Positions 194-31,379 of a stretch of DNA of 32,000 nucleotides are shown piece after piece (positions within the stretch are counted from its first letter, which is position 1; each line of letters opens with the position of its first letter). Location of the stretch: the NCBI GenBank assembly GCA_030549845.1, contig JAUQQN010000005.1, forward strand, positions 1,080 to 33,079, in the 5' to 3' direction. The notes beneath the pieces are model-generated. The model saw nothing but the letters and a program-made list of their open reading frames with translations, ran no database searches and was not told where the DNA came from. The DNA comes from Patescibacteria group bacterium. Lineage in GTDB: Bacteria > Patescibacteriota > Minisyncoccia > UBA6257 > HR35. The position numbers were made by a program, and so were the translations under genes.

Positions 194-220
194 GGAGTGT
201 GTAAAAAATGCTACACCTCC
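194..220 (+). promoter_or_regulatory. Stem-loop 9 nt upstream of the ATG at 230
   Basis: GGAG(T)GTGTA pairs with TACACCTCC, with one bulged T and an 8-nt loop. TAATCTAAT and then the ATG follow. Confidence 0.35.
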
Positions 221-229
221 TAATCTAAT

Positions 230-676
230 ATGAAAAACAATAATGAAAAAAAAGCAATTTTAATACTTATTATAATATTTTTAGTTTTAACATTTCTTAT
301 TTCAAATTCTTTAAAAATAAAAAATAAAAACCTAGAACAACTTAAAGAGGGTGAAAAACAAGAAATGATAAATAAAAAATTTGAAGAATTAATAAATTGT
401 GAAAGCTCTAATAATGAGTTGGCTATTAACAGAAAAGATAGTGATGGAACGGCAAGTTTTGGACTTTTACAATGGAAGCCCGAAACCTTTAGAAGGTTGG
501 CCATTAAATATGGAGTTATTGGAGAAAAAGCAGATTGGAACTGGACGATGACTTTAATTTTTGATAGGAGAGTGAATAAGAAGATTTTTACTGAAATTGT
601 AAACGATGCAGCAGAAAATCCATACAATTTATGGCCTATTTGTTGTAAAAAAATTGGGTGTAAATTTAAAAATTAA
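230..676 (+). CDS. Membrane-anchored Rpf-like transglycosylase-domain (lysozyme-like) protein
   Basis: There is an N-terminal hydrophobic helix (AILILIIIFLVLTFLI). INCESSNNELAIN..SFGLLQWKPETF plus the C-terminal LWPICCKKIGC fit the CES..GGLQF..TW...W.vC..KLG pattern of the resuscitation-promoting-factor transglycosylase-like domain. Confidence 0.65.
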   Translation: MKNNNEKKAILILIIIFLVLTFLISNSLKIKNKNLEQLKEGEKQEMINKKFEELINCESSNNELAINRKDSDGTASFGLLQWKPETFRRLAIKYGVIGEKADWNWTMTLIFDRRVNKKIFTEIVNDAAENPYNLWPICCKKIGCKFKN

Positions 677-680
677 CAAA

Positions 681-717
681 AACTACATTGCGGTTATTTA
701 TTTAATCGCGTGTAGTT
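681..717 (+). promoter_or_regulatory. Stem-loop 7 nt upstream of the ATG at 725
   Basis: AACTACAT(T)GCG pairs with CGCGTGTAGTT (one G-T pair, one bulge) around a 14-nt loop. AAAAATT and then the ATG follow. Confidence 0.4.
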
Positions 718-724
718 AAAAATT

Positions 725-895
725 ATGAAAAATGACAATCTAAACATATTTTTAATCATAATTCTTTCAATTTTTCTAATAAACTTGGTGATTAACATTT
801 CTATTTTGTTAAACATCAAAAACAAATACAAAGAATCAACTAAACAAATTAATACACCATATATTTTTAAAAAACTAGAATATTGCCCAAAATAA
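725..895 (+). CDS. Small single-pass membrane protein (56 aa, below the ORF-track cutoff)
   Basis: Own translation gives MKNDNLNIFLIIILSIFLINLVINISILLNIKNKYKESTKQINTPYIFKKLEYCPK, with the stop at 893-895. It is co-oriented with its neighbours and preferred over the antisense ORF 694..900. Confidence 0.35.
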   Translation: MKNDNLNIFLIIILSIFLINLVINISILLNIKNKYKESTKQINTPYIFKKLEYCPK

Positions 896-898
896 AAC

Positions 899-1018
899 AT
901 GACAAAAAGTATAATTTTGGCATTTATTTTATTTTTCTTACCAATACAATTTATGCCAGGATTTTTTTTCTGGCTATTTATTACTTATTTATTTTTTAGA
1001 ATAAGCCTAGATGAATAA
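899..1018 (+). CDS. Small hydrophobic peptide (39 aa)
   Basis: Own translation gives MTKSIILAFILFFLPIQFMPGFFFWLFITYLFFRISLDE. The ATG lies 3 nt after the previous stop. Confidence 0.3.
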   Translation: MTKSIILAFILFFLPIQFMPGFFFWLFITYLFFRISLDE

Positions 1019-1032
1019 CATTAAATATGGTG

Positions 1033-1109
1033 TTAAAATATATAAAGTAGCATTGAATATTAAAATTAAAAATATATCAACTCTTCGAGTTGATGATTAA
1101 AAAATAAAA
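1033..1109 (+). promoter_or_regulatory. Conserved upstream module, copy A (19-mer box, 8-bp/3-nt hairpin, A-rich leader)
   Basis: TTAAAATATATAAAGTAGC lies at 1033-1051 and a hairpin at 1076-1094 (ATCAACTC TTC GAGTTGAT). GATTAAAAAATAAAA then leads to the ATG at 1110. A near-identical module lies at 1634-1712. Confidence 0.55.
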
Positions 1110-1565
1110 ATGAATAAACATCTTAAAAAAAACACAAAAGTTTATATCTTTTTCTCAATTAGTCTTTTAACAATTAGAGATAGTGGTAAAAAAGCAATAC
1201 AAGAAAGAGAAATAATAAAAAAAAGAATTGAAAAAGGAAATAACTGTTTCCACAAAGTTATAATTTATGAAAATCTTGAAAAAACAAGTTATTACGTTTT
1301 TGAAAGTAAAGTAGGGTTTCATTTTAAACCCCTTGATATTAAAATTAAGGAAATGTTACCTCCCGCGCTAAAACAGCGGTTTGAGGTTTACGAAGCTTAT
1401 TTTCCTCGTCAAGCGGTTTTAAGATATGAATGTGTAAAAAATTTAGACCATAAAGATTTTAAAGAATTTTATTTATATAGTAATCGTAAAATACCGTGGG
1501 GATATTATTGGATATATGTAGATACTAGAAAAGTAAGTGTTCCCATTGATCTGAAAATGAGCTAA
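1110..1565 (+). CDS. Hypothetical early protein (151 aa)
   Basis: This is a long ORF preceded by conserved module copy A. No family was recognised. Confidence 0.55.
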   Translation: MNKHLKKNTKVYIFFSISLLTIRDSGKKAIQEREIIKKRIEKGNNCFHKVIIYENLEKTSYYVFESKVGFHFKPLDIKIKEMLPPALKQRFEVYEAYFPRQAVLRYECVKNLDHKDFKEFYLYSNRKIPWGYYWIYVDTRKVSVPIDLKMS

Positions 1566-1633
1566 TAAAACTAATGAGAGAAAATAAACAAAAATCAAAA
1601 AGGAAGCATAAAATGGTTGGAAATTAAATTGTA

Positions 1634-1712
1634 TTAAAATATATAAAGTAGCCACTAGGTGTAAATATAACATAATATATCCACTCTCTGGGTGGATGAT
1701 TAAAAAATAAAA
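1634..1712 (+). promoter_or_regulatory. Conserved upstream module, copy B
   Basis: The same 19-mer lies at 1634-1652 and a hairpin at 1679-1697 (ATCCACTC TCT GGGTGGAT). The identical GATTAAAAAATAAAA leader precedes the ATG at 1713. The distance from hairpin to ATG (15 nt) is the same as in copy A. Confidence 0.55.
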
Positions 1713-1970
1713 ATGAAAAAAATAAAATTGGGGAAGAAATATTTATATCCAATTTTTACAATTACAAAAATTTGTAATAATTTAGATATGGCGAATGAAG
1801 AGCTTAAAAAATTTTTAGAGAAAAAGAAAGATAACCGCCTAGCTAAACATACTAAGTATTATGACGAATATTTTTTGATTGTTAAAGATGAATTTTCTGT
1901 ATATAACCATCAATTTGGAGAGATTAAATTAACAAAGGGTTTGTATTATTTAAGTTTTTGGTTTGAATAA
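1713..1970 (+). CDS. Hypothetical early protein (85 aa)
   Basis: The ORF is preceded by conserved module copy B. No family was recognised. Confidence 0.5.
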   Translation: MKKIKLGKKYLYPIFTITKICNNLDMANEELKKFLEKKKDNRLAKHTKYYDEYFLIVKDEFSVYNHQFGEIKLTKGLYYLSFWFE

Positions 1971-1972
1971 AG

Positions 1973-1994
1973 TCAACAAAAAGATTTTTGTTGA
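1973..1994 (+). promoter_or_regulatory. Intercistronic stem-loop
   Basis: TCAACAAAA (1973-1981) pairs with TTTTGTTGA (1986-1994) around a 4-nt loop. It lies 3 nt after the TAA of the 1713..1970 gene and has no T-tract. Confidence 0.45.
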
Positions 1995-2011
1995 AGTAAT
2001 AAGAGATAAAA

Positions 2012-2422
2012 GTGAGAACCCCTATGATTTATGGGAAAATTGTTGCAGGAAAGTGGGGTGTAAAAAGGTCGGTAATTAAAAGAGAAAAGTTAAAAATGGA
2101 GAACATTGATAAAGAAGATTTGTTAATAAAAACCGTAAATATTTTACGTAATCGTCTTTTGGAGTTACACTCAAAAATAAATGAAGCAAGTATAAATAAA
2201 GATGAAGTAAACGCTCTTGTTTTAAATATTTTAGATGATTTTGAAAAATTGATGTCGTTGGTTAATGAAGCATTGTCTACGATACAATCATTAAACAAAA
2301 TGATTGATAGATTGGAAGATAGGGTTTCTAAATTAAACAAAGAACTAAATTTTATGGGGGAATTAGCAACAAAAATGTATTTTGGATGGGAAGATGAACA
2401 AACACCGCCAAAAAGGTTATAA
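2012..2422 (+). CDS. Coiled-coil protein, start uncertain (GTG 2012, ATG 2024 or ATG 2096)
   Basis: The protein is heptad-like and charged (LLELHSKINEASINKDEVNALVLNILDDFEKLMSLVNEALSTIQSLNKMIDRLEDRVSKLNKEL). Its 3' end overlaps the next gene. Confidence 0.5.
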   Translation: MRTPMIYGKIVAGKWGVKRSVIKREKLKMENIDKEDLLIKTVNILRNRLLELHSKINEASINKDEVNALVLNILDDFEKLMSLVNEALSTIQSLNKMIDRLEDRVSKLNKELNFMGELATKMYFGWEDEQTPPKRL

Positions 2423-2720
2423 ATTAGAACATTTTCTTGAGAAATTCTTTAACGAAAACGGAATTGAAGTAAAAAGACGAGGTTTGGCTTATGAAGAAGA
2501 CTTAATTTTCATCAAAACTGGTGAAAAAATGGAGGTTAAGAATAGAAAAAATGCAAATTTAAGCCAAATTTATGAATTTTTGGGTGAAAATGACTATTTG
2601 GCGATTAAACAAACAAGTAGAAAGCATAGAAATAGGCCTATTTTAATTGTTTTAAGATTAGAGAAGTTTTTGGAACTATTAAAAAATCAAATGAGTTGTC
2701 GTGTTTCTTGTGATGCGTAG
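2394..2720 (+). CDS. Hjc-like Holliday-junction resolvase (small PD-(D/E)XK nuclease)
   Basis: RQKGYKLEHFLEKFFNENGIEVKRRG..EEDLIFIKTGEKMEVKNRKN matches the archaeal-type Hjc pattern KG..E..l...L...G..V.R...DL......EVK..K. The ATG at 2394 is preferred to the TTG at 2382. Confidence 0.55.
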   Translation: MNKHRQKGYKLEHFLEKFFNENGIEVKRRGLAYEEDLIFIKTGEKMEVKNRKNANLSQIYEFLGENDYLAIKQTSRKHRNRPILIVLRLEKFLELLKNQMSCRVSCDA

Positions 2721-2735
2721 CATTATCAACAAATA

Positions 2736-2763: not shown

Positions 2764-2765
2764 GT

Positions 2766-3362: not shown

Positions 3363-3386
3363 ATGCCTCACCCCCTTGTTTTGTTT

Positions 3387-4079: not shown

Positions 4080-4127
4080 ATTATAAAACAATTTTTATTT
4101 TGTCAACAACTAAAGATATGATATAAT
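4080..4127. promoter_or_regulatory. Back-to-back divergent promoters sharing the -35 region
   Basis: On the + strand: TTGTCA (4100-4105), a 16-nt spacer, then TGaTATAAT (4119-4127). On the - strand: TTGACA (complement of 4101-4106), a 15-nt spacer, then TATAAT (complement of 4080-4085). Confidence 0.55.
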
Positions 4128-4133
4128 AATTTT

Positions 4134-4400
4134 ATGTTTTTCAAAAATATTAATAAAGATTCAAATGAGAATGAATTTTTTGAAACGGCAGACTTTGGAT
4201 TAATAGTTTACCTCACTTATTTGGGATATAAAATTGTTGAGATTAAAAAAACTAATAATAAAAGAAAAATATTTGTTTTTAAAAGAACTCCAAAAATAGA
4301 AATTGACATAAAACAATTTTGGGAAAGAGAGGCGATGGTTGAGCCACAGCAATTTTTAAACACCATAAAATACGTAAAAAGCAGAATATACAATTCGTGA
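4134..4400 (+). CDS. DUF5659-like small protein
   Basis: FETADFGLIVYLTYLGYKI..IFVFKR and FWEREAMVEPQQFLNTIKYVKSRIY match the remembered DUF5659 pattern (..YWKRELRVEPQAYFNQLKIIKTRLY). Confidence 0.6.
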   Translation: MFFKNINKDSNENEFFETADFGLIVYLTYLGYKIVEIKKTNNKRKIFVFKRTPKIEIDIKQFWEREAMVEPQQFLNTIKYVKSRIYNS

Positions 4401-4425
4401 AAAACGTATTTTAACTATATTTATT

Positions 4426-4563: not shown

Positions 4564-4827
4564 TTATCTCCCCAAGATTTTTTTTATAACAACAAAAAAT
4601 CCTTGAGGAGAGAATAAAAGTGGTAAAATTACATCCCAATCTAAATCAATTATATTAAAATATTTTAATGCAGCAATCGATAAACCAGCTAAAATTGAAT
4701 AAAATACATCTTTTACTCTTTCATTTAAACCAATTACTTTTTGTTCAATTATTTTTAAAATCTCAACACCAATAACAACAGAAAGTATAAAAGAAAAAGG
4801 AATTAATGATTGTGGTAATGTAATCAT
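4564..4827 (-). CDS. Holin-like small membrane protein
   Basis: The 87-aa protein has three hydrophobic segments (LIPFSFILSVVIGVEIL, FYSILAGLSIAAL, VILPLLFSPQGFFVVI) and lies directly downstream of the M23 lysin gene. Confidence 0.45.
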   Translation of the reverse strand: MITLPQSLIPFSFILSVVIGVEILKIIEQKVIGLNERVKDVFYSILAGLSIAALKYFNIIDLDWDVILPLLFSPQGFFVVIKKILGR

Positions 4828-4838
4828 GTTTTAAAATA

Positions 4839-4865
4839 CCCACAACACCTTTAAGTGTTTATGGG
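4839..4865 (-). promoter_or_regulatory. Stem-loop 11 nt upstream of the holin-like ATG
   Basis: In the minus-sense RNA, CCCATAAACAC / GTGTTGTGGG pair with two G-U pairs. On the + strand the same positions are C-A mismatches. A TGtTATAAT extended -10 (complement of 4872-4880) lies just upstream. Confidence 0.45.
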
Positions 4866-4888
4866 CATTTAAATATTATAACACACGA

Positions 4889-6277: not shown

Positions 6278-6508
6278 TTATTTTAATTTTTCAATATCTT
6301 TTAATAATTCGTCTATAGCCTCGACTTGTTTTTGTAAATGTTCTTTCATTTCTTTTAGCCAACCTATATTTATTGGTATAATCTCATCATCTATTTTTTC
6401 TCCTGTTTCTGAATCAAACCTTTTAATTGACATTAAATAAACATCATCTTGTTTTATTAACGATATTAATCCTTTTTGTTTTTTTTCCTTGTATCTTATT
6501 AAATCCAT
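6278..6508 (-). CDS. Hypothetical protein (76 aa)
   Basis: The ORF lies directly downstream of the fibre gene. No family was recognised. Confidence 0.45.
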   Translation of the reverse strand: MDLIRYKEKKQKGLISLIKQDDVYLMSIKRFDSETGEKIDDEIIPINIGWLKEMKEHLQKQVEAIDELLKDIEKLK

Positions 6509-6515
6509 TTTAATT

Positions 6516-6543
6516 ATTATACCACACTTCTACATTTTACCAA
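6516..6543 (-). promoter_or_regulatory. Candidate internal promoter giving a near-leaderless mRNA
   Basis: Read on the minus strand: TTGGTA (complement of 6538-6543), a 16-nt spacer, TGgTATAAT (complement of 6516-6524), then 7 nt to the ATG at 6508. Confidence 0.35.
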
Positions 6544-9332: not shown

Positions 9333-10842
9333 GATTAAGTTTTGATTGGAATTCTTCTATTAGGCTTTGTATTGATAATATTTCTTTTTCTAATGATTTA
9401 ACCATATAAGAATTTATAAGCATTGATTTTATGGTGTGGTAATCATATAACGGCTTAAATTCAAATTTTTCTTCTAAAATATTTTCAAAAACCCACCCAA
9501 TTCTAGTGGCTATGTTATTTTTATAGCCTTTATCAATTATATCAAAAAAGCTTCTTTTATAAAAATCAACAAATTTAAAGTTAAAATCTATAAGACTGTC
9601 TGCTTTTAAAAAAGCTAATTGCCAATCATCATCTGATCCAGTTACTACAGCTAAATTTTTATCATATCCGCACGATACTAATTTATTACCAACTCTTTTA
9701 ACATCCCAAAGCCAGATGTCTTTATTTTTGATATCTGTTAATATGGTTGAATTTTGTAAGGATAATTTTGCATATTTTTTGTCTGGCAATATGTTAAAAA
9801 TTCTAAAACTTGCCCCAAATTTTAATGGTTTTAATTCATAAAAAGGAACACCATTTTTAATTGCTATAAAATAATCACCAACCCTAGAAAATGTAGATAG
9901 CTTATTAAAAACACTATTCCACCCCTCCCTATTTGGACAAAATTCGCTAAAGTAAAATTTATCTCTTGAGGGAGAATACATTACTCCAATATCCCAAATA
10001 ACAAACTCGTTATCTCCCCTAAGGAACATTTCTTCCATTGGCCTAAAAAACATATCATAAATTCTTTCTGCTTGTTCTTGTTTTTTAATCCAAAAAATAA
10101 CAGATGCCGCATCTCCGGTTTGAAAACCACTATTTGCTGGACCAATTGGTTTAAGTTCTATATCTATGCTCATACCAATTAATTTTCTATCCCTAATAAC
10201 TATTTCTGGGACAAACTCAATTAAATCATCTATTTTCTCTTCTAATATAAATCCACCATCTTCATATAATGTTTTATCTTCTTCTAAAATATTAATCACC
10301 TCGTCTCTTGCAATTAGTGGAATATCTGATAATGGAACAAATGTTTCTGCGTTTATATTTTTACCCTTTACAACCCATACCTTATCCGTATTTTTTAAAA
10401 ATTCTTTTGCTTCTTCTACTTTATTAAACTCATGAATTTCTTGTTTGGCAAATAAATTGTGATTCTTAAAGATGTATTCTTTTGCTATTTCTCTATTTGT
10501 TTCAAACAAAAAATCTTGTTTTGTTGGAAATAGACCGAAATAACCCATTTGTTTTATTTGATTAGCATAAGGATAAAGAAAATTAAAATCACAAAATATT
10601 AAATAATCATCTCTTTTTCTCTCCTTATTTAAAAAATTAATAACATCGTCAATTCTCTTTTTTTCTATTATTCCATCATAAAGCTGTAATCTTCTTTCTT
10701 TTTCCTCGGGAATTTCATCTGGTAAATCTTTTAATTCCTCTACTTGCCCAACTATTACATCCCATCCCTCTTGTTGCAATTTAAGAGCTATTGGCATACC
10801 ATGACCATCATATGTAATTAAGACAAATTTTGGCTTATTCAT
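9325..10842 (-). CDS. PurD (glycinamide ribonucleotide synthetase)-like ATP-grasp protein with an extra C-terminal region
   Basis: Blocks are collinear with remembered E. coli PurD: KFVLITYDGHGMPIALKLQQ (VLVIGNGGREHALAWK), FPTKQDFLFETNREIAKEYIFKNHNL..VWVVKG, GFILEEKIDD..FVPEIV, and FYFSEFCPNREGW (VIEFNCRFGDPE). The gene has 8-nt start/stop overlaps with both neighbours. Confidence 0.5.
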   Translation of the reverse strand: MNKPKFVLITYDGHGMPIALKLQQEGWDVIVGQVEELKDLPDEIPEEKERRLQLYDGIIEKKRIDDVINFLNKERKRDDYLIFCDFNFLYPYANQIKQMGYFGLFPTKQDFLFETNREIAKEYIFKNHNLFAKQEIHEFNKVEEAKEFLKNTDKVWVVKGKNINAETFVPLSDIPLIARDEVINILEEDKTLYEDGGFILEEKIDDLIEFVPEIVIRDRKLIGMSIDIELKPIGPANSGFQTGDAASVIFWIKKQEQAERIYDMFFRPMEEMFLRGDNEFVIWDIGVMYSPSRDKFYFSEFCPNREGWNSVFNKLSTFSRVGDYFIAIKNGVPFYELKPLKFGASFRIFNILPDKKYAKLSLQNSTILTDIKNKDIWLWDVKRVGNKLVSCGYDKNLAVVTGSDDDWQLAFLKADSLIDFNFKFVDFYKRSFFDIIDKGYKNNIATRIGWVFENILEEKFEFKPLYDYHTIKSMLINSYMVKSLEKEILSIQSLIEEFQSKLNHE

Positions 10843-21038: not shown

Positions 21039-21503
21039 TTAGTTATAAAAAATATCGACATAAAAAGTAAAAGAATTTCCACCACTAATATCCCATTTAA
21101 TTCTCCAAACATTAGAAACCAATGGAAGTAGGGGGTTACCACTAGGAATGTTTTCGATATCTTCAGACGTAAAAAATTCATTTTTTGAACCGGCAACTAA
21201 AAATAAATAATGGGTGATTGGTTCAGCAATACCATGAAAATGGGCTGTGTTTATAAAAGTTTTACCACCATCTAAAGATTGTTGAAATATAACCTTCAAA
21301 TCTTCTCCCGGAGAAGAAGACATATCGCAATCAGTAACAGTTAATTTAACAACAACGTTTTCTATCTCCATATCGTTAACAACAATAATTCTACTTTCTC
21401 CGCTCTCTATTCTTGTTTCTAGAGGAACGATATTTATACAATTAAGGGACTTTTTTATTGCCATAGCATAAGTAAATGGCCGGGGTTTATCTCCCCCGGC
21501 CAT
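21039..21503 (-). CDS. Hypothetical head-associated protein (154 aa)
   Basis: It lies immediately downstream of the major capsid gene. No family was recognised. Confidence 0.45.
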   Translation of the reverse strand: MAGGDKPRPFTYAMAIKKSLNCINIVPLETRIESGESRIIVVNDMEIENVVVKLTVTDCDMSSSPGEDLKVIFQQSLDGGKTFINTAHFHGIAEPITHYLFLVAGSKNEFFTSEDIENIPSGNPLLPLVSNVWRIKWDISGGNSFTFYVDIFYN

Positions 21504-21513
21504 TAATTAAAGA

Positions 21514-22446
21514 TTAAAGAGTTGATGCGGCCGATTCAATTCTTACTAATCTTTCTTGTTGGGTAATTGCCACAGCCATATTAACCTTTGCACCAACCGA
21601 ACCCCTTTGACCAAGAGGATTATTAACAGAAAGATTGCTTTCTGGTGGCAAAACATAAGTTGCCACTTTTCCTGGAAGCCAGTAAGCAATCCTATAAGCA
21701 TCAGCACCAATTAAAGTGGTTGGATAAACGGTGACATTTGAAGAGAAAGTATCAACATTAGAGGTTTGAACAACTCTTGCGCCACCAACTGAACCAACCT
21801 CACCAGTGAAAATATTTTCTGGTGCGGCGTATTTTCTAATATCAAGCCATTGGCCAGTTGAGGGGTTGCTCATTAAATCGTGGGCAACGGCAGGATGCAT
21901 AACACAAGCATAACCACCACCAGGAAATTCTGGTGCATTATTTGCCCTCAATTTTTGTACAGCCCTTATGATTAATCGTACATCAATTAAATCTCCATCG
22001 GCCAAAGCATCTCTTGAATTTTTATTATTGGGATAAATAACATTTTCTCCGTTGTTATTAACAACTGTTTGAATTACGCTATCAATTTTTCTTGCTATTA
22101 CTTTACCAACCTCAACTAATGTAGAATTAATTAAGTCAAAAAATGATGTTAAAACAACTAAATCCGTTAGTTCAACATTAACACCGTACTGTGTTGGTGT
22201 TCTTTCAACGGTAGAAACACTCAAAGCAATTGATGTTGGCGGCGTTCCCTCGGTTAATGTTGAAACTGATGAAGTAGCAATTTTATTAACCACAACAAAC
22301 CTCGAGAAATAATTACCCTGACTTACATATTCTACTGTACCAAATTGCTCAAAATAAAGATATGGCTGAAGGCTTTCTACTACTTTTTTGTCGAAATAAA
22401 TACCAAGGGCCTGTGAGCCTAAAGAAGATGTGGTGGTTATATCCAT
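21514..22446 (-). CDS. Major capsid protein, HK97 fold, N4-gp56-like family
   Basis: The 310-aa protein shows YFEQFG, TLTEGTPP, the YG.NVELTDL block, GGYACVMHPAVAHDL, FTGEVGSVGGARVVQTSN and NPLGQRGSVGAKV, all typical of this capsid family. It lies downstream of a scaffold-like gene. Confidence 0.8.
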   Translation of the reverse strand: MDITTTSSLGSQALGIYFDKKVVESLQPYLYFEQFGTVEYVSQGNYFSRFVVVNKIATSSVSTLTEGTPPTSIALSVSTVERTPTQYGVNVELTDLVVLTSFFDLINSTLVEVGKVIARKIDSVIQTVVNNNGENVIYPNNKNSRDALADGDLIDVRLIIRAVQKLRANNAPEFPGGGYACVMHPAVAHDLMSNPSTGQWLDIRKYAAPENIFTGEVGSVGGARVVQTSNVDTFSSNVTVYPTTLIGADAYRIAYWLPGKVATYVLPPESNLSVNNPLGQRGSVGAKVNMAVAITQQERLVRIESAASTL

Positions 22447-22542: not shown

Positions 22543-23037
22543 TTATTCTAAACCATAAATTTTTTTGAACTCCTCTCTGGCTCTTTTTTCAAGTTGATCC
22601 ATTGGCAAAGAAGATAAATCCTCCTCAAGGCTTGGTGAAATTGTTTTAGATCCCAAAGAAAATCCACTAATATTTTGATTTGTTTCGTTTTCAAGTATTT
22701 TTTTACCTATATATCTTGATACCGTGTCTTCTATGGGTTCTCCTTGTTTTCTTAAATTCCATATATCATCTATCTCGTTTGCTAGGTGTGGAAATTTTTT
22801 TAAAATAGTATTCTCAAAATCTAGTTTATCAACCTTCAATGCTAACTCATCTATATTCGCTATTCTCGAAACTGTTTTTAGATGCTTATTTTCTTCCTCT
22901 AATTCTTTTAATCTTTTAAGCGAATCCTCATATTTTTTTCTTAAAAGCTTAATAACATTACTCTCTACATCGTTTTTAACATTTTCTTGTTTATTTTCTT
23001 CTTTTTGTTCCTCTTGTTCTTTTATTTCTTCGCCCAT
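22543..23037 (-). CDS. Scaffolding protein (charged coiled coil)
   Basis: The protein is E/K-rich and helical and lies directly upstream of the capsid gene. The ATG at 23037 (MGEEIKEQEE) is preferred to the TTG at 23073 because a perfect hairpin occupies 23047-23074. Confidence 0.5.
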   Translation of the reverse strand: MGEEIKEQEEQKEENKQENVKNDVESNVIKLLRKKYEDSLKRLKELEEENKHLKTVSRIANIDELALKVDKLDFENTILKKFPHLANEIDDIWNLRKQGEPIEDTVSRYIGKKILENETNQNISGFSLGSKTISPSLEEDLSSLPMDQLEKRAREEFKKIYGLE

Positions 23038-23046
23038 TATTTTACG

Positions 23047-23074
23047 CTTGATTGGTCGGGAGCAACCAATCAAG
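23047..23074 (-). promoter_or_regulatory. Stem-loop 9 nt upstream of the scaffold ATG
   Basis: CTTGATTGGT / ACCAATCAAG form a perfect 10-bp stem around an 8-nt loop. Confidence 0.5.
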
Positions 23075-23091
23075 GATAATTAATTACTTTT

Positions 23092-23433
23092 TTAAAGATA
23101 AAAATTCAATATTTCTGGGTCTTGGTATCCCCCCATGTTTTCAACAAGTCTTCTACATGTTTCGGCATTACAAATCCACACCTCGAGCCTCTTCCAGTAT
23201 TTATATATACTTTGAGAAAATCTTTGTGGATTACTAGAGCCCCCACAAAGGCATTTAAATGTTTTGTTTTTAAATAAATAACCCAATTCTTCGCACTCGT
23301 CTACTTTTTTACCACAAAATTCACACCTACCACCAATAATTCTTAATGACTCAATTTTTTTATGCCCAACCGCGCTCTCTTCCCCACCATTATTTTGTTC
23401 AACTATAATTTCTTCTTTATTTTTTCTTGCCAT
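23092..23433 (-). CDS. Cysteine-rich (zinc-ribbon-like) protein
   Basis: The cysteine pairs are CEFCGKKVDEC, FKCLCGG and WICNAETC. No family was recognised. Confidence 0.4.
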   Translation of the reverse strand: MARKNKEEIIVEQNNGGEESAVGHKKIESLRIIGGRCEFCGKKVDECEELGYLFKNKTFKCLCGGSSNPQRFSQSIYKYWKRLEVWICNAETCRRLVENMGGYQDPEILNFYL

Positions 23434-23440
23434 AATTTTA

Positions 23441-23755
23441 TTATAAACCCTCTTTTTCTTTTGTCAAGAAAGAGGTATATAGGTCTATTTGTTTAATTAA
23501 TTCCGATGGTAAAGAAATTAAAAAATCAATAGCAACCAAACTTTGTTTATATGCATAAAAGTCGTCTATAGATCCTCTTGTATCCTTTTTAAAATTATCT
23601 AAAAGGTTCTCTCTAGCCTCAAGTAATATACTTTTTAAAACAGACCATTCTTCTGAACCCTCTAAAACCCTTAATTTGGTTAAAATTCTATGTGCTTTTT
23701 CTAAATCATCTCCTATTAATTTTTCTAATGTTTTTTGAAAATAAATATCCTGCAT
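23441..23755 (-). CDS. Hypothetical protein (104 aa)
   Basis: The ORF lies in the head module. No family was recognised. Confidence 0.45.
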   Translation of the reverse strand: MQDIYFQKTLEKLIGDDLEKAHRILTKLRVLEGSEEWSVLKSILLEARENLLDNFKKDTRGSIDDFYAYKQSLVAIDFLISLPSELIKQIDLYTSFLTKEKEGL

Positions 23756-23763: not shown

Positions 23764-23964
23764 TTATCTTTTTTTCTTTTTTCTTTGTACCCCGTGTTTG
23801 CCATAAGCAATGGCCGCGGCTTGTTTTAGTGCTTCTTCTTGTGTTTGGGGTTTATAAGTAGCCCTACTAGTTGTCATTTTTCCAGTTTCCTTCCATTCTC
23901 TCATTAATTTTTCTATTTCATTAGATATTTTTTCTTTTTTTTCTTTTGATATCTTTCTTGTCAT
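23764..23964 (-). CDS. Small basic protein (66 aa)
   Basis: The ATG overlaps the portal stop (TAATG). The motif EEALKQAAAIAYGKHG is present. The family is uncertain. Confidence 0.4.
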   Translation of the reverse strand: MTRKISKEKKEKISNEIEKLMREWKETGKMTTSRATYKPQTQEEALKQAAAIAYGKHGVQRKKKKR

Positions 23965-25922
23965 TATTTTATTTCGGTGGGGGTATTGGGTTCAATTGAT
24001 TTTAATAAACCCATAATACCCTCATTTAATATATTTTTTTCTTCTTCTTCTACTGAGGTTGGTTTGGGAAATTCTATATTTTCTATTTTTTCACCACCCT
24101 TCTTTCTTCTTTCTTCTTTCAAATTCTTAATTCCTCTCTTTTTTAAATAATTAAGATAATGAACGTAAATATGCGCATTTCTTGCTTCTGTTTCTGGTGA
24201 TTTATAATGTATTGATATGTGTTCTAAGTCGTCGTCTTCTTCCATAACATCAACATAGTTATTTTCTTTTAGTTCTTCATTTTCTAATTTTGCCTTCAAT
24301 TCGTGTGGTGTTGGGGGAAGTAAAATTTCAACTTGTTGCGGAGAGAGATCCATGTCGTATAGTAAAATTTTTAATGCCTCCTTTGGATTCCCGCCCAATT
24401 GTATTAAAAGTGGTAAAACCTCGGCCATCTCTCTTCTTCTAATTATTTTGTTTGGTTCTGTAAGAAGTGAAGAAACTATTTTAATGTCTGGATCAATTTC
24501 CGGGATAAAATCTGATTTTTTAACCTCACGAAAACTTTCTGCGCCGTAATAACCAACTACTTTTATAAGTTTTGTATCTCTTGGTTTTAAAAATCTTTTG
24601 TGTCTTTTGAGCCACCTATACCAAAAGTCTTTTTCACCATCTAAAATATTTCTCATAATACTTGAAATCTGTAAATCCTGCTTTGCTTTTGCTATGGCTA
24701 TTTCTGTTGCTGTTTTTTTGACTTGCGTTAGAGAGCCCCTTAAAATTCTTGATGCTCCAACGGCACCAACCGCTTCATTTTGAATAATATTCATAAATGA
24801 TATTGTATCATTAGAAACTACACCAGATTTCGGAAATGGAGTAATCTGACCTTGTGGGGGAACGTTAGTAAATATGTTTTTTCCTATTTCTCTTGTTAGC
24901 AAATCTTTTGGATTAACTAGGGCATTAACATTTACAAGAAACTGTGGAACGGCGTCCATTATTATTCCCTTTAATAGAAAGTTTTTAAGAATAACATCAA
25001 CCCTATGGTTGTCCTCAATAATATCTGGTAAACCTATGCCCCAACCAGAAATACTTGTTTTAATGAAATAATAAAATATAAATGGTATTTTGCTTTCATT
25101 GTTTCCTTTATCTCTATAATCTACCCTTCTAAATCCTAGTAAATTACTTATTCCGTTATCTGTCCAAACAACCCATAATTTGTTATTATTATAAAAATAC
25201 CACTCTAAAATCTCTTGGTAAGTACTATTCATTACTGGCTCAAAAGAATAATTGTCGCCAATTAGAATTTGTTTTGCTTCTTCTTCTTGCCTTCTTTCAT
25301 ATGTTAGTGATTGAGCTGATTTAAATAGAATACTTTTTACTTTTTTCTCGTCTAGATTTGGATTATTAAGAAGTTCTTCCGGTGTTTTATAAACGAACCT
25401 TCCAGCAAATCTCGCGTCCTCAATTGAGGTTGCTTTAGGATCCAAAAAGAATGTAAAAGGAGATTGAACCACCGGTAAGAGAATCTTTCGAGATGTATCA
25501 TATATAGAAACATCTAAAATTCCTGTTCCAAAAAAGATAATATCCCAGTTAAGCTCCCTTTGAATTTTTGCCATTCCCATTTCATCAAAATCAAAATCAG
25601 CAACAGCATTAGCAAATTTAACTTTTTCTATATCTTCTGGTTTTCTTTCTTTAAACTCTGTCCTTCTTATATCATTATCAATCGAAGAATAAAGCTCGTG
25701 AAATTGAGTGAAGGTAAGTTTTGAACCAATTTGAATATCTGAAATAGATTTTCTGAATTGATTTAGATATAATTTGAGTTCTTCTAACCAAACCCTTTTT
25801 CTATTTAACCAAGACTCGCGAGAATAATTAAATTGACTTCTAACAATTTGAAGTATTTCATCTTCCCTCCATTCGTTTAAATCCCTTGTTATAAGTTCAA
25901 TTAGTCTCTGTTGATTGATCAT
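23964..25922 (-). CDS. Portal protein
   Basis: The 652-aa protein lies between terL and scaffold/capsid and has an acidic C-terminal region. The call is mainly by size and synteny. Confidence 0.6.
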   Translation of the reverse strand: MINQQRLIELITRDLNEWREDEILQIVRSQFNYSRESWLNRKRVWLEELKLYLNQFRKSISDIQIGSKLTFTQFHELYSSIDNDIRRTEFKERKPEDIEKVKFANAVADFDFDEMGMAKIQRELNWDIIFFGTGILDVSIYDTSRKILLPVVQSPFTFFLDPKATSIEDARFAGRFVYKTPEELLNNPNLDEKKVKSILFKSAQSLTYERRQEEEAKQILIGDNYSFEPVMNSTYQEILEWYFYNNNKLWVVWTDNGISNLLGFRRVDYRDKGNNESKIPFIFYYFIKTSISGWGIGLPDIIEDNHRVDVILKNFLLKGIIMDAVPQFLVNVNALVNPKDLLTREIGKNIFTNVPPQGQITPFPKSGVVSNDTISFMNIIQNEAVGAVGASRILRGSLTQVKKTATEIAIAKAKQDLQISSIMRNILDGEKDFWYRWLKRHKRFLKPRDTKLIKVVGYYGAESFREVKKSDFIPEIDPDIKIVSSLLTEPNKIIRRREMAEVLPLLIQLGGNPKEALKILLYDMDLSPQQVEILLPPTPHELKAKLENEELKENNYVDVMEEDDDLEHISIHYKSPETEARNAHIYVHYLNYLKKRGIKNLKEERRKKGGEKIENIEFPKPTSVEEEEKNILNEGIMGLLKSIEPNTPTEIK

Positions 25923-26292: not shown

Positions 26293-27645
26293 TTAAATAT
26301 TATACCACTCTTTTTGAAAATTAAGAAGACTTTTTATTTTGTCTATATCAACAAAAAATGTTAGAGCAAGGGCATCGGCAACGTCTGGAGATGGAATACC
26401 CCTTTTCCTTAAAATGTCTTTTGGTATTATCATTATTTTTTTATCAGAATTTTTTTTATATTTAATGTTTAAAATTTGATTAAATGAATCATCTTTAATT
26501 AATTTTCCTCCCCCCAAAATCCAATTTCTTAACTTCCAGTATAGCTCCGCCCTAATATTTAAAAAATCTGGCTCAGATGATTTATTTCCCAAAACAATCG
26601 GAATTAAATTTAAAAAGCCGATTTCCCTTAATCTATCTACAACACCCCTTCCAACACCAATTGCATCTATACAAATTTTAATAATTGGATAAATTTTTGA
26701 TAAATTAAAAATTAAAGTAATAATTTGCATCGTATCTTCTAATTTTTGATTAAATACTACTTTTGCTAATAAATTATTTCTTAAAACTATTGCTGTTTTA
26801 TCTCCTCCGGCCCCAACATCAACACCAAGTATGTTTTCTGAGTTTTTAAAAATTTTTTCAAATTCCTCGCCAAATACAAATGCATTTTCTAGCTCTTTAG
26901 ATGTAATCAATGAAATAAAGCCCGACTCATCCATTTCACCCTCGAAAGCATACCAGTCACCATCCAAAAATGCCCCCCTTTCTTTTTCTGGTAAACTTTT
27001 AAGTTGCTCAAAATATTCATAATTCAAATATGGATTATCGTGTGGTAATGCCTTAATAAAAGCTATTTGATTCCTATATTTCTCAAACTCTGATGGAAGA
27101 TTTTTTTCAACAAAAAATTGCCTTACCCATAGCATATGTTCTCCAATTGGATTTGATGCGCAGATAAATTTTGTATCTTCAATACCAGGATATCTTAATC
27201 GAGTTAAAAGAATCTTAAAAGTTTCAAATGGTATTTGTGTTATTTCATCAATTGCCATTAAAGCAAATTCAGCAGAAAGATATTTTTCTGGTTCATCTAG
27301 GTTCCTAAAACTAATAATTGCTCCCCCATATTCTTCTTTTAAGTGAAATTCCTTTTTTTGCTCATAAAAGTCTCCTAACCATTCTGGAAATTCTTGTCTA
27401 ATATACTTTAAATGTCTGTCTTCTAATTCCTTATAAGTTTTACAAAATAAGCCAATATGAGTAGAAGCGCCATATTTTTTAGCATAATACAAAGCATAAT
27501 ATAAAGAAATCCATCTCAGTGCATAACTTTTTCCACTCCCAGCACTCCCCCCGTACAAAACAAATTTATTTTCTTTTGTAGCCCGTAAAAACTCAATCTG
27601 TTTTTCAAAAAAATTTGCTAACCGAAAAAAGTTTATTTTATTCAT
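26293..27645 (-). CDS. terL: Terminase large subunit
   Basis: It has Walker A (LYGGSAGSGKSY), Walker B-like (LMAIDEITQ) and C-terminal nuclease-domain acidic motifs (LGVDVGAGGDKTAIV, SPDVADALALT). The ATG at 27645 is preferred to the TTG at 27654. Confidence 0.85.
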   Translation of the reverse strand: MNKINFFRLANFFEKQIEFLRATKENKFVLYGGSAGSGKSYALRWISLYYALYYAKKYGASTHIGLFCKTYKELEDRHLKYIRQEFPEWLGDFYEQKKEFHLKEEYGGAIISFRNLDEPEKYLSAEFALMAIDEITQIPFETFKILLTRLRYPGIEDTKFICASNPIGEHMLWVRQFFVEKNLPSEFEKYRNQIAFIKALPHDNPYLNYEYFEQLKSLPEKERGAFLDGDWYAFEGEMDESGFISLITSKELENAFVFGEEFEKIFKNSENILGVDVGAGGDKTAIVLRNNLLAKVVFNQKLEDTMQIITLIFNLSKIYPIIKICIDAIGVGRGVVDRLREIGFLNLIPIVLGNKSSEPDFLNIRAELYWKLRNWILGGGKLIKDDSFNQILNIKYKKNSDKKIMIIPKDILRKRGIPSPDVADALALTFFVDIDKIKSLLNFQKEWYNI

Positions 27646-28798: not shown

Positions 28799-28845
28799 TT
28801 ATCCACAGTCCATGTGCTTGACAAAAAAAATTTGAGGAATATAAT
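28799..28845 (+). promoter_or_regulatory. Promoter P1: TTATCCACA box, 10 nt, TTGACA, 16 nt, TATAAT
   Basis: The box is at 28799-28807, the -35 at 28818-28823 and the -10 at 28840-28845. Both hexamers match the sigma-70 consensus. Confidence 0.65.
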
Positions 28846-28920: not shown

Positions 28921-28924
28921 AAAT

Positions 28925-29320
28925 ATGAATGAAAAAGAAAGAAGAAAAATTAAAGTTGAAAAAATTAATTTTAGGGGCGAGGAAGTGTATACAATCAAAC
29001 TTAGAAGGTGGCTCTCTCACGGTAAGGAGTGGGCAGCCCTAATTGTAAACGGAGTAATAACTAGTGATGGTAAAAAAATAATAAATTTAGAATTTTGCCC
29101 GAAAATAATTTTTGAGTGGTCTCATTCAGGAAAAAACGGAACAACTATAGTGAAATTGTTAGGAGGAGGATTTTACAAAATCTCAAATCCTGATGGTGTT
29201 TACGGAAAAGACGCCATTGGCTATTATTTCTGGGATGGAAAAAGTGATGAAATGAAAGAAGTGGATGAAGACTTTGCAATTATTTACGCAGATACATGGT
29301 CTTATCACATCCAAAAATAA
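28925..29320 (+). CDS. Hypothetical protein (131 aa)
   Basis: The ORF is driven by P1. No family was recognised. Confidence 0.5.
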   Translation: MNEKERRKIKVEKINFRGEEVYTIKLRRWLSHGKEWAALIVNGVITSDGKKIINLEFCPKIIFEWSHSGKNGTTIVKLLGGGFYKISNPDGVYGKDAIGYYFWDGKSDEMKEVDEDFAIIYADTWSYHIQK

Positions 29321-29349
29321 CTAAGGTATAACTTAACTAAGGTATAACT
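29318..29349. repeat. Perfect 16-bp tandem direct repeat x2 (TAACTAAGGTATAACT) plus a partial third copy
   Basis: The copies are at 29318-29333 and 29334-29349, followed by CAGGTATC. The first copy contains the TAA stop of 28925..29320. Confidence 0.8.
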
Positions 29350-29412
29350 CAGGTATCTGCTTTATAACCGCTAACTGTTTTTGGCCTGTTTCTTTTATAT
29401 TTTCCAAAATTT

Positions 29413-29456
29413 TAAATTTTATTTTTTAAGATTCTAAATTTTATTTTTTAAGATTC
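29413..29456. repeat. Perfect 22-bp tandem direct repeat x2 (TAAATTTTATTTTTTAAGATTC)
   Basis: The copies are at 29413-29434 and 29435-29456. The second copy contains the stop and last codons of the minus-strand gene 29448..30578. Confidence 0.8.
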
Positions 29457-30578
29457 TGCTGTAAGATTTTTATATTCCTCTTCAGTAATTTTAAATTTCC
29501 AAGCAAATGCGGAATAGACACTATTTATATTTTTTGGAATAAATGAAATATATTCTTTCCCTGTGCTTATATCTTTATATTTTAAAAATTTAACAAAATC
29601 ATTTGTATTTTCATTTAAAACCATCCACAACTCCCCCCTCTCATTTTTATCTTTTAAAACAGCCAATTTTTCATACTCAAGTGCTTTTTCTAATCCGCCA
29701 ATAAATTTTGTAAATATAACTCTTTTTTCTACATTTCTTATTCCTAATAAATTATAAATACTAATATTTTTATTTAAAATAAGAGAAGACTCAAGCACCT
29801 CTTTGTCTGAGTTCTCATGTAATAATAAATATTTAAAATCTATTTTATTTTTTTCTAACAAATTTTTTAAAATGTTTAAATCATTAACATCTTGAAAGTT
29901 AAAATAAAAATAAAATGATTGCATAAAAAAATCTGAATTAGAATTAAATAAATTATATAAACTTTCTTTATTTATTAATAATTTCATAACCCCGCTTATG
30001 TGCATTTTTTTATTATTAATAATTTCTATTCCAAGCATGTCAACAACATCTACATTCTCAATAATTACTTCTTTTGTGCTTACTTTCTTTTTCTCTCTTA
30101 AAACCGGCAAAAATGATAAAACATTACCCCTTTTTATATTAATATTTTTAATTCTTTTATTTTTATTTTCAACAAAAAGCATTAAATTATCAAACCCCTC
30201 ACCCTCTATAACCTGAAAATTTGAGAAAACCTTAAAAGATTTTTTTATATTATTAAAAGAAAAATAAGTATATATTTTTTTATCGACCGTCAGCTGTGCA
30301 GTTTTTGAATAAACATCATTTAAATAAATTTTTAAATAGCTACTTAAAACAGGTAAATTATTATCTATTTTAATATCTAGCTCTCCTGTCTCTAGCCCCT
30401 GCACAACAACATTTTTAACATTTAAAAAATTACAATATAAAAACTCATTAACTTTTTCATTATAATTTTTCCCTGTTAAATAAACATCTTTTATATTTTC
30501 CTCATAAAATTCTAAAACTTTACTTTCTTTTTTACTTGTATAATTTTCATCTTTTATTAATATTTTTTTATCAAGCAT
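29448..30578 (-). CDS. Hypothetical protein (376 aa), N/K/I-rich
   Basis: This is a long ORF. The C-terminal GELWMVLNENTNDFVKFLKYKDISTGKEYISFIPKNINSVYSAFAWKF is reminiscent of a conserved domain I cannot name with confidence. Confidence 0.5.
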   Translation of the reverse strand: MLDKKILIKDENYTSKKESKVLEFYEENIKDVYLTGKNYNEKVNEFLYCNFLNVKNVVVQGLETGELDIKIDNNLPVLSSYLKIYLNDVYSKTAQLTVDKKIYTYFSFNNIKKSFKVFSNFQVIEGEGFDNLMLFVENKNKRIKNINIKRGNVLSFLPVLREKKKVSTKEVIIENVDVVDMLGIEIINNKKMHISGVMKLLINKESLYNLFNSNSDFFMQSFYFYFNFQDVNDLNILKNLLEKNKIDFKYLLLHENSDKEVLESSLILNKNISIYNLLGIRNVEKRVIFTKFIGGLEKALEYEKLAVLKDKNERGELWMVLNENTNDFVKFLKYKDISTGKEYISFIPKNINSVYSAFAWKFKITEEEYKNLTAES

Positions 30579-30586
30579 GTTTTTTT

Positions 30587-30621
30587 AATCCTTAAATCCT
30601 AATTTTTAGGATTTAAGGATT
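30587..30621 (-). promoter_or_regulatory. Perfect 16-bp stem-loop 8 nt upstream of the ATG at 30578
   Basis: AATCCTTAAATCCTAA TTT TTAGGATTTAAGGATT. On the minus strand it is followed by AAAAAAAC and then the ATG. It has no T-tract, so it is not a classical terminator for the upstream gene. Confidence 0.5.
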
Positions 30622-30635
30622 TAATTATTAATAAA

Positions 30636-31028
30636 TTAATCATTTATATTTTCCCAATCATCTGTCAAATAATTAAAATTTCTCTCACATAAAACAGCAT
30701 ATAAACCCTCCTCAACCTGTATATCTTTATGCTCTTCATGTTTTAAAATCCCCCTACAGTTTTCTAATTTTATAAAAATTATATTTTCATTTAATTTTAA
30801 ATCACTTCCCTCAAAAACATAAAAATTTTTATCACTTACTAAAATATGTTTATGCCCGCCCGCACCTTCCTTTATTACAAACTCATTTATCTTATTTACC
30901 ATTTTTTTAATAATAAATCTTTCCTCATTAAATCTTTCAAGTTTATCATTAGAAAATTCATTTTCAAAAATTTCATATAATAATACATCTCCATGCCTAT
31001 AAATTTTTCTTTTTTTTTCATTATTCAT
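30636..31028 (-). CDS. Hypothetical His-rich, possibly cupin-like protein (130 aa)
   Basis: The motifs are YRHGDVLL, GAGGHKHILV and KHEEHKDIQVEEGLYAV. The fold assignment is tentative. Confidence 0.3.
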   Translation of the reverse strand: MNNEKKRKIYRHGDVLLYEIFENEFSNDKLERFNEERFIIKKMVNKINEFVIKEGAGGHKHILVSDKNFYVFEGSDLKLNENIIFIKLENCRGILKHEEHKDIQVEEGLYAVLCERNFNYLTDDWENIND

Positions 31029-31035
31029 ATTTTTT

Positions 31036-31072
31036 TGGATTAATCAAAATGCTGAGCATTTTAATTAATCCA
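31036..31072 (-). promoter_or_regulatory. 17-bp 5'-UTR stem-loop 7 nt upstream of the ATG at 31028
   Basis: TGGATTAAT(T/C)AAAATGC arms surround a 3-nt loop. The single non-Watson-Crick position is a G-U pair only in the minus-sense RNA. Confidence 0.55.
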
Positions 31073-31098
31073 TTTTTTAATTATTTTCTTATTTTAAT

Positions 31099-31177
31099 TT
31101 TTTTAATTTTTATTTTCTTAACTTTAAATAATTATATTCTTAAAATTTTGCTTGTCAAGTACGGAGATTGTGGATAA
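31099..31177 (-). repeat. Right arm of the 79-bp inverted repeat (partner 28799-28877)
   Basis: The reverse complement aligns with 28799-28877, as described for the left arm. Confidence 0.7.
31131..31177 (-). promoter_or_regulatory. Promoter P2: TTATCCACA box, 10 nt, TTGACA, 16 nt, TATAAT (minus strand)
   Basis: The box is the complement of 31169-31177, the -35 the complement of 31153-31158 and the -10 the complement of 31131-31136. Confidence 0.65.
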
Positions 31178-31278
31178 CTTAAAAAGTTATTTTATATTTT
31201 TTTACCCCCTCTATTCACCCCCCACCAGTTTATAAATTTTTTTATTGCTTATAAGATATAAGATGGATACCGAATAAG

Positions 31279-31325
31279 TTATGCACAATTCAAAAACTTG
31301 ACAAATAAAAAATTGGAAATATAAT
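31279..31325 (+). promoter_or_regulatory. Promoter P3: TTATGCACA box, 10 nt, TTGACA, 16 nt, TATAAT
   Basis: The box (one mismatch) is at 31279-31287, the -35 at 31298-31303 and the -10 at 31320-31325. It is divergent from P2. Confidence 0.6.
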
Positions 31326-31340
31326 TTTTAAAATTAAAAA

Positions 31341-31379
31341 TTGTTGTTAGTTTGTTCGAGAAGAATAAACTAACAGCAA
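31341..31379 (+). promoter_or_regulatory. 13-bp (plus inner 3-bp) 5'-UTR stem-loop 2 nt upstream of the ATG at 31382
   Basis: TTGTTGTTAGTTT pairs with AAACTAACAGCAA (one G-T pair). An inner TTC/GAA stem is also present. Confidence 0.5.

Follow-up and report, generated by a model that had tools for sequence, protein, structure and literature searches.

The 32,000-nucleotide (nt) stretch of contig JAUQQN010000005.1 analyzed here, called the window below, is a phage genome of 25-34% G+C in which stable RNA hairpins stand in front of start codons on both strands. Eleven of them had been picked out by an earlier inspection of the letters (the sequence-only reading), and all 11 were found to fold as single stem-loops at the coordinates it gave, with minimum free energies of -7.6 to -21.3 kcal/mol. 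One hairpin, at 23047-23074 on the minus strand, precedes a scaffold-like gene. Its alignment among related phages indicates a new, well-supported RNA family that is conserved across the whole phage group and absent from Rfam. We tentatively favor the reading that the hairpins bound and stabilize mRNA segments and that the scaffold-gene hairpin is also a sequence-specific operator. We infer this role from position, structure and comparison with known systems, and consider it plausible, somewhat short of probable.

Hairpins ahead of start codons

The folding energy of each hairpin was compared with 200 dinucleotide shuffles, the control that the sequence-only reading had itself proposed. The hairpins were clearly more stable than the shuffles (z -3.1 to -9.6). 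For 10 of the 11, none of the 200 shuffles matched, and 4 of 200 did so for the weakest, 1973-1994. The 11 hairpins, with their neighboring codons, are as follows.

187-222, plus strand: 13-bp hairpin with 3 G-U pairs, 7-8 nt before ATG 230 of an SLT-like gene; -17.2 kcal/mol, z -4.1, antisense fold -12.0 kcal/mol; its 5′ arm is Shine-Dalgarno (SD)-like (GGGGGUGGAG) and its 3′ arm anti-SD-like (CACCUCCU)
681-717, plus strand: intercistronic hairpin of 15 bp, 4 nt past stop 676 and 7 nt before ATG 725; -17.0 kcal/mol, z -5.4, antisense fold -9.0 kcal/mol
1076-1094, plus strand: short 8-bp hairpin, 15 nt before ATG 1110; z -4.8; paralogue of 1679-1697, with shared flanks
1679-1697, plus strand: short 8-bp hairpin, 15 nt before ATG 1713; z -4.2
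1973-1994, plus strand: weak A/U-rich hairpin of 9 bp, 2 nt past stop 1970; -7.6 kcal/mol, z -3.1
4833-4870, minus strand: 16-bp hairpin with 3 G-U pairs, 5-6 nt before ATG 4827; -17.8 kcal/mol, z -4.3
23023-23089, minus strand: conserved RNA motif, consisting of the 12-bp stem 23047-23074, an apex, GCGUA, a 3-6 nt A-rich spacer and AUGGGCGAAGAA
28878-28920, plus strand: leader hairpin of 9 + 8 bp with 4 G-U pairs, 4 nt before ATG 28925; z -5.4
30587-30621, minus strand: intercistronic hairpin, a perfect 16-bp stem 14 nt past stop 30636 and 8 nt before ATG 30578; z -6.5
31036-31072, minus strand: leader hairpin of 17 bp with 1 G-U pair, 7 nt before ATG 31028; z -6.7
31341-31379, plus strand: leader hairpin of 16-17 bp with 2 G-U pairs, 2 nt before ATG 31382; z -9.6, antisense fold -11.1 kcal/mol

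The spacing of 2-17 nt between stem and start codon that had been reported for these hairpins holds, with corrections to the start codon at two of them. The true start after 23047-23074 is ATG 23037, 9 nt past the stem, and not a TTG within the stem. The start after 1973-1994 is uncertain (GTG 2012, ATG 2024 or ATG 2096). Three hairpins were found in addition to the 11.

4566-4611, minus strand: hairpin within gene 4564-4827 at its 3′ end, stopping about 9 nt short of ATG 4557; -19 kcal/mol
21474-21504, minus strand: G+C-rich hairpin directly after the major capsid gene, terminator- or attenuator-like; candidate 3′ bracket of the scaffold-capsid segment
23979-24023, minus strand: hairpin within the portal gene at its 3′ end, 14-16 nt ahead of ATG 23964

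The position of the hairpins was not random. A sense-strand hairpin of -14 kcal/mol or lower, ending no more than 20 nt before the start codon, was present at 10 of 42 genes, about a quarter. The background rate of such hairpins was 0.33% of 1500 random sense positions in coding DNA, so that 0.14 genes would be expected to have one (binomial P ~2e-16). Both strands were also scanned for local structure with a 50-nt span. Non-coding DNA makes up 8% of the window, yet it held 11 of the 26 structures of -16 kcal/mol or lower, and those lying on the sense strand there end 2-8 nt ahead of a start codon. A chance origin of the hairpins was rejected by the enrichment and shuffle tests together.

No stem sequence recurs, either within the window or in any of the loci fetched for comparison (relatives are given as L numbers below), confirming that the stems are unrelated and ruling out a repeated or mobile palindrome of the repetitive extragenic palindrome or miniature inverted-repeat transposable element kind. 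No loop sequence was shared among the hairpins other than 23047-23074. The hairpins fall in at least four classes that differ in conservation, one of them being the intercistronic class (681, 30587 and 1973). Set apart from it are the clade-wide motif 23047-23074, the leader hairpins of perfect promoters (28878, 31036 and 31341), 4833-4870 at its predicted transcription start, and the post-capsid stem 21474-21504. The sequence-only reading had described a single recurrent architecture of stem-loop, A-rich spacer and ATG, mostly without an SD motif, and this was not supported. The A-rich linker and the missing SD are real features but are not specific to the hairpin genes, and cannot be counted as part of the motif because they are found genome-wide: nearly every phage gene starts after a short A-rich run without an SD, and A/T-rich sequence without an SD likewise precedes all six genes read from a contig (28% G+C) of the presumed host. 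The A content at positions -12 to -1 was 60% in hairpin genes and 48% in other genes, and SD-like 4-mers were seen in 3 of 12 hairpin genes versus 5 of 30 others.

The sequence-only reading had noted for two minus-strand hairpins (4839-4865 and 31036-31072) that non-Watson-Crick positions pair only in the sense RNA, and in detail this is true: counted over 14 hairpins, G-U pairs number 21 and A-C 1x1 mismatches are absent. Among the 11, the sense fold was more stable than the antisense fold in eight and equal in three, with a mean gain of 4.2 kcal/mol. Taken alone, this asymmetry is weak evidence, because hairpins in coding regions lean to the sense strand as well (29 versus 16; the difference between the two sets was not significant, P = 0.115). 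Comparison of sequences was more informative. A relative of 92% identity, L017, covers two of the window hairpins in full, and both keep their structure through substitutions. The 28878 hairpin folds at -20.0 kcal/mol in L017 and at -21.1 kcal/mol in the window despite several substitutions and indels. In the 30587 hairpin of L017, an A-to-G change gives a U-G pair in the sense RNA only, while the antisense fold weakens from -19.0 to -14.5 kcal/mol. The paralogues 1076 and 1679 differ by one compensatory A-U to C-G change and one U-A to U-G change. Together with the covariation of the scaffold-gene hairpin described below, these changes support the earlier proposal of a function at the RNA level, the hairpins being sense-RNA structures selected for their shape. 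Moreover, two paralogous promoter-leader cassettes, about 88% identical over 88 nt up to the hairpin, have unrelated stems and then reconverge at CCAAAAAA(A)TATG.

Strand-independent elements acting at the DNA level, such as antisense terminators or palindromic sites for protein binding or replication, are very improbable in the light of these changes. The A-rich sense sequence upstream of each hairpin would give the antisense RNA a stem followed by a U-run, a simple scan did flag 1094-1076 (minus), 1697-1679 (minus) and 30587-30621 (plus) as antisense terminator-like, and DnaA boxes lie nearby. However, the sense fold is never the less stable one, and the antisense-terminator reading is contradicted because the wobble pairs form in the sense RNA only. 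The substitution in L017 preserves the sense stem at the cost of the antisense stem, the invariant U-G pairs of the scaffold-gene motif are C-A mismatches on the other strand, and no antisense genes that would need termination lie at the hairpin sites. On the sense strand, the pre-start hairpins are not intrinsic terminators because an A-run, and not a U-run, follows the stem. Terminator-like structures in the sense direction were found only at 21474-21504 and 2741-2759. The latter is a two-way terminator between convergent genes (GGGGGGC-TAATT-GCCCCCC, with T-runs on both strands), indicating that ordinary G+C-rich terminators are in use in this genome.

Conservation of the hairpins among homologous phages, on which the sequence-only reading had staked its idea, was mixed. 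The scaffold-gene hairpin and the two covered by L017 are kept, while those of the lysis region are absent from relatives of about 70% amino-acid identity. A positionally conserved set of lysis-region hairpins was rejected for this reason, L125 and L126 lacking them; 4833-4870 was among those absent from L126. The hairpin at 4566-4611 is in part a by-product of Phe-Phe and Lys-Lys codons, and its outer stem is not kept in L126. The hairpin at 23979-24023 is shared by the window with L006 and L007; L003 has a weak form of it, and more distant relatives have none. Overall, the excess of pre-start hairpins in relatives was only modest.

The scaffold-gene motif and its operon

The motif at 23023-23089 was found at the same junction in every relative covering it, with AUGGGCGAAGAA after the spacer being the start of the scaffold-like gene. 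Its apex, UG-CUCC-CG (UGCUCCCG), is invariant and the GCGUA following the stem is conserved. A search pattern made of the apex, GTA and ATGGGCGA only, which did not require complementarity of the stem, found the motif in 21 more viral contigs. In the resulting 23 distinct instances, 276 of 276 cells were paired, with changes on both sides at 10 of the 12 pairs, whereas slid controls gave 38-55% pairing. Two U-G pairs are invariant, and the AUG lies 8-10 nt past the stem in all 23 instances. A covariance model located a single copy of the motif in each genome, or two copies in tandem, and only at the scaffold junction. The block AGUCG-UUAAUUA upstream of the motif is also conserved. TTAATTA, about 5-6 nt upstream of the hairpin, could belong to a late promoter ending at the hairpin, a signal inseparable from coding constraints and AT-richness.

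Tandem duplication of the motif was seen in five contigs: L008 (4726-4859), L009 (12791-12924), L020, L024 and L032. In all five, the upstream copy has retained AUGGG. This copy also has the hairpin, GCGUA and the spacer. It opens a mini-open reading frame (ORF) of only 3-4 codons in L008, L009, L020 and L032 (e.g., ATGGGCGTTTAA), and in L024 no stop falls within the 10 nt extracted past ATGGG.

Among all the hairpins, 23047-23074 is the only one that combines a conserved apex, a covarying stem and an adjacent start codon. It resembles the operators of T4 gene 43, the MS2 coat protein and the P22 scaffold in its covarying stem and invariant apex at a short fixed distance from the AUG of an abundant structural gene. 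In contrast to them, it shows no sequence similarity to any of the three and no Rfam match. Translational autoregulation by the P22 scaffolding protein is a precedent, although the P22 operator RNA itself is undefined in that work (bioRxiv 10.1101/2022.12.13.520362). The genes neighboring the motif showed no candidate RNA-binding domain. A pseudoknot between the CUCC loop and AUGGG seems unlikely, as at most 3 bp are possible and the linker looks too short.

A perfect consensus promoter upstream places the motif within a late operon, which runs through the 113-amino-acid (aa) gene (23092-23433), the motif, the scaffold-like gene, the capsid gene and the 3′ stem.

23440-23467, minus strand: perfect TTGACA-16-TATAAT promoter, placing the transcription start on ATG 23433 (leaderless)

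The hairpin after the capsid gene holds its position in L003, L006 and L007, and its folding energy there and in the window is -23 to -31 kcal/mol. Several genes look leaderless because the -10 box stands only 6-7 nt ahead of the ATG (23433-23467, 6508-6543 and the 26292 region on the minus strand, 4100-4136 on the plus strand), ATG 23433 being the clearest case. The -35 box of the late promoter itself lies in a hairpin loop at 23448-23475 (minus), CCTCTTTC-TTGACAAAAG-AAAAAGAGGG, and the same arrangement with a different stem sequence was seen in L003 (5041-5076). This hairpin may be a terminator overlapping the promoter.

In relatives, GGGGUUGCUCCCC occurs within hairpins that follow the capsid gene or precede the adaptor gene (L006 around 16640-16680, L007 around 9920-9960, L011 8049-8086 and L013 upstream of 14443). 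It has UUGCUCCC in common with the apex of the scaffold-gene motif, in a different structural setting.

Proposed segment boundaries and other candidate roles

Stem-loops that stabilize segments of mRNA are known from the E. coli ompA leader, the T7 gene 10 leader with the T-phi terminator, and B. subtilis cggR-gapA processing. As in these systems, the hairpins of the window are stable stems of unrelated sequence in untranslated RNA upstream of a cistron, with the start codon left uncovered. Likewise, the presumably highly expressed capsid segment has a stem on its 5′ side and a terminator-like stem on its 3′ side. Two differences are that the hairpins are not always at the predicted 5′ end, and that an SD-poor Patescibacterium is the host. 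Stem-loops in leaders and between cistrons that control phage mRNA stability, processing or translation are a familiar kind of element, and what is new is the scaffold-gene RNA family outside Rfam and the SD-poor context of a Candidate Phyla Radiation (CPR) host.

Because the stem sequences are unrelated, the role would depend on shape. The hairpins sit in the small number of untranslated gaps that this compact phage genome leaves, and in every fold the AUG is unpaired and outside the hairpin. In the mechanism that we tentatively favor, the single-stranded A-rich leader or intercistronic RNA upstream of the hairpins would be exposed to endonucleases and to 5′-end-dependent or 5′-to-3′ decay. 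A stable stem would halt this decay just before the start codon, the AUG remaining in an open A-rich landing pad, and the downstream cistron would thereby be preserved and translated. For the late operon, the motif hairpin on the 5′ side and the post-capsid hairpin on the 3′ side would bracket the two most needed proteins, the scaffold-like protein and the capsid protein. The scaffold-gene hairpin would in addition be read by sequence, as a translational operator for a phage protein; such reading is probable because its apex is invariant and its distance to the AUG is fixed at 8-10 nt.

The position of the early hairpins within their transcripts bears on this mechanism. Three of them lie in leaders with perfect consensus promoters.

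28799-28845, plus strand: DnaA box TTATCCACA and perfect TTGACA-16-TATAAT promoter, predicted to drive the 28878 leader
31131-31177, minus strand: DnaA box and perfect TTGACA-16-TATAAT promoter, predicted to drive the 31036 leader
31279-31325, plus strand: DnaA-like box TTATGCACA and perfect TTGACA-16-TATAAT promoter, predicted to drive the 31341 leader

A 5′ stabilizer in the strict sense, one of the possibilities that the sequence-only reading had raised, fits the hairpin at 4833-4870, which begins at the predicted transcription start (about 0-2 nt) of the promoter 4904-4875. Going by the predicted promoters, it would not fit 28878 and 31036, since their stems begin about 26 and 52 nt downstream of the predicted start; the distance is about 9 nt for 31341.

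Several points weigh against the role that we favor. With the 28878 and 31036 hairpins so placed away from the 5′ end, a barrier to decay would need a prior cut in the leader. The hairpin is at the AUG end of all three perfect-promoter leaders, which are 50-96 nt long, and this could point to a role in initiation. By a rough hand calculation, placement nearer to the AUG than by chance had a combined P of about 0.13, not significant either way. Most hairpins are not kept beyond very close relatives, and therefore several may be dispensable. The stability bias of sense over antisense folds is partly compositional, and gene 22543-23037 is a putative scaffold gene by its position and composition.

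The main alternative, a rather unlikely one that the same placement brings up, is that the hairpins are translation-initiation elements. The stem would mark the 5′ edge of an open landing pad and set the choice of AUG or tune its frequency of use, with hairpin, spacer and AUG forming one ribosome-loading unit in a host that rarely uses SD sequences. The strong hairpins do end 2-9 nt before the AUG, the scaffold-gene motif holds its distance in 23 of 23 instances, and its upstream tandem copies retain everything from hairpin to AUGGG, with a mini-ORF after four of five. In SD-less Flavobacterium, mRNA structure and A at upstream positions tune initiation, and in SD-poor Bacteroidia initiation is likewise tuned by A-rich positions and low structure (PMC6847099). 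The A-rich, SD-less sequence before the AUG here is like these "Kozak-like" initiation regions, where initiation is structure-sensitive. On the other hand, those regions are open, with no abutting stable hairpin described, and belong to a different host phylum (PMC6847099).

Spacing and occurrence speak against an initiation element. The 28878 hairpin ends 4 nt before the AUG in the window and 11 nt before it in L017, and the range over all hairpins is 2-17 nt; this variable gap is easier to reconcile with a barrier than with a device that positions the start. Most genes (30 of 42) share the A-rich start context but have no hairpin, and in relatives the hairpins are mostly missing. Moreover, a stem 2-4 nt from the AUG would lie inside the footprint of the 30S subunit, where hindrance rather than help would be expected. 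It is more doubtful still that the stem stands in for the SD helix or positions the start site in SD-poor Patescibacteria as a self-contained ribosome-loading module; in that case the UG-CUCC-CG motif would be a version optimized for the most abundant capsid-assembly proteins.

Three narrower proposals concerning initiation were dropped. A structured standby site, as the sequence-only reading had suggested, is at odds with the folds, in which neither a start codon nor an SD is sequestered; the AUG is outside the stem in every fold and the flanks are single-stranded. A split SD brought near the AUG by the hairpin, as in T4 genes 25 and 38, was rejected with no SD upstream of any stem. Coupling to an upstream ORF was rejected as well, the upstream ATG within the 28878 hairpin being lost in L017.

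Stem length bears on RNase III, which the sequence-only reading had also put forward. Under this explanation the hairpins would be processing sites as in T7 or SP82 early mRNA, where cuts separate cistrons or remove a leader. Unrelated stem sequences suit an enzyme that reads shape, and the hairpins lie in early leaders and between cistrons, like the T7 and SP82 sites, the ones here being predicted from sequence. The stems measure 8-19 bp. At least 15 pairs (15-19) are present in 7 of the 14 hairpins counted, and 30587, 31036 and 31341 have uninterrupted runs of 16-17 bp. However, RNase III usually needs about two helical turns (about 20 bp) of double-stranded RNA, and three of the hairpins have 8-9 bp and the scaffold-gene motif 12 bp. 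In contrast to the T7 sites, most stems here are shorter and lack the typical internal loop, a clear one being present only in 28878. Recognition of shape would leave the invariant apex of the scaffold-gene motif unexplained, and cutting within the stem would destroy the protective structure. Processing by RNase III would be possible for the stems of 15-19 pairs but hardly for those of 8-12 bp, and as an account of the whole set it is improbable.

To our knowledge, almost nothing is known of gene expression in Patescibacteria and their phages, because neither is easily cultured. The window offers a concrete set of cis-acting RNA structures in such a phage, and its scaffold-gene motif stands at the two genes that determine how much capsid is made. 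Should the hairpins act on translation and not on stability, they would reveal how a very large lineage of bacteria selects its start sites without SD pairing. As decay barriers, they would be an ordinary solution in an unusual host.

Phage genome, host and early promoters

The structural module of the phage occupies the minus strand at about 4.4-27.6 kb and encodes internal virion, tail and lysis proteins in addition to the following.

26293-27642, minus strand: large terminase
23964-25922, minus strand: portal
21514-22446, minus strand: major capsid protein

The phage is an SU10-like podovirus, because the Pfam families SU10_portal, SU10_adaptor and Phage_capsid_4 were found on the same genes in relatives. 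No GenBank phage matched, closely or distantly, in a megablast search with the nucleotides or a tblastn search with the portal protein. In IMG/VR no relatives of the early 376-aa and 206-aa proteins were found, and the 376-aa protein had a single homologue in the protein database. The window contains no tRNA genes, and no Rfam covariance model matched anywhere in it at E ≤ 1.

The host is very probably a CPR bacterium (Patescibacteria), because the repeat of a CRISPR array carried by the phage is the same as in an array of 23 repeats from a Patescibacteria genome bin and also matches a short one from a Saccharibacteria bin. The phage array (28465-28630, plus strand) consists of three identical 30-nt repeats (GTTTCCAATGAACTAGTGTAGGATTGAAAG) and two spacers. 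Spacer 1 is a perfect match (36/36) to L017 773-808, within the homologue of the 376-aa gene, and matches the phage's own copy at 30234-30269 in 35 of 36 positions, with one mismatch. From these matches, the pattern looks like competition between related phages by means of the host Cas machinery, with self-escape by point mutation.

DnaA boxes (TTATNCACA) were found at 107-115, 119-127, 28799-28807, 31169-31177 (minus) and 31279-31287, all five in promoter regions. Three of the five stand about 10 nt upstream of the -35 box of a perfect TTGACA-16-TATAAT promoter. This layout of box and consensus promoter was seen in 86 IMG/VR stretches, versus about one expected by a rough estimate. The arrangement suggests that the host DnaA acts on early phage promoters or that the boxes mark an origin. 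A hairpin as a general feature of such leaders was rejected, since just 4 of the 46 leaders with this layout from other viral contigs contain one.

The left end of the window was built by local duplications, because it contains the duplicated cassettes 1020-1112 and 1625-1715 and, at about 2008-2076 (plus strand, frame 3), a pseudo-duplicate matching the SLT-like gene's C-terminus (SENPYDLWENCCRKVGCKKVGN versus AENPYNLWPICCKKIGCKFKN at 230-676). The gap that separates the convergent genes 28925-29320 and 29448-30578 has no clear terminator; direct repeats lie there at 29318-29349 and 29413-29457, with TAACTAAGGTATAACT and TAAATTTTATTTTTTA each occurring twice. The early region of the relative L126 carries an OrfB_IS605/Cas12f1-like TnpB gene at 10549-11601.

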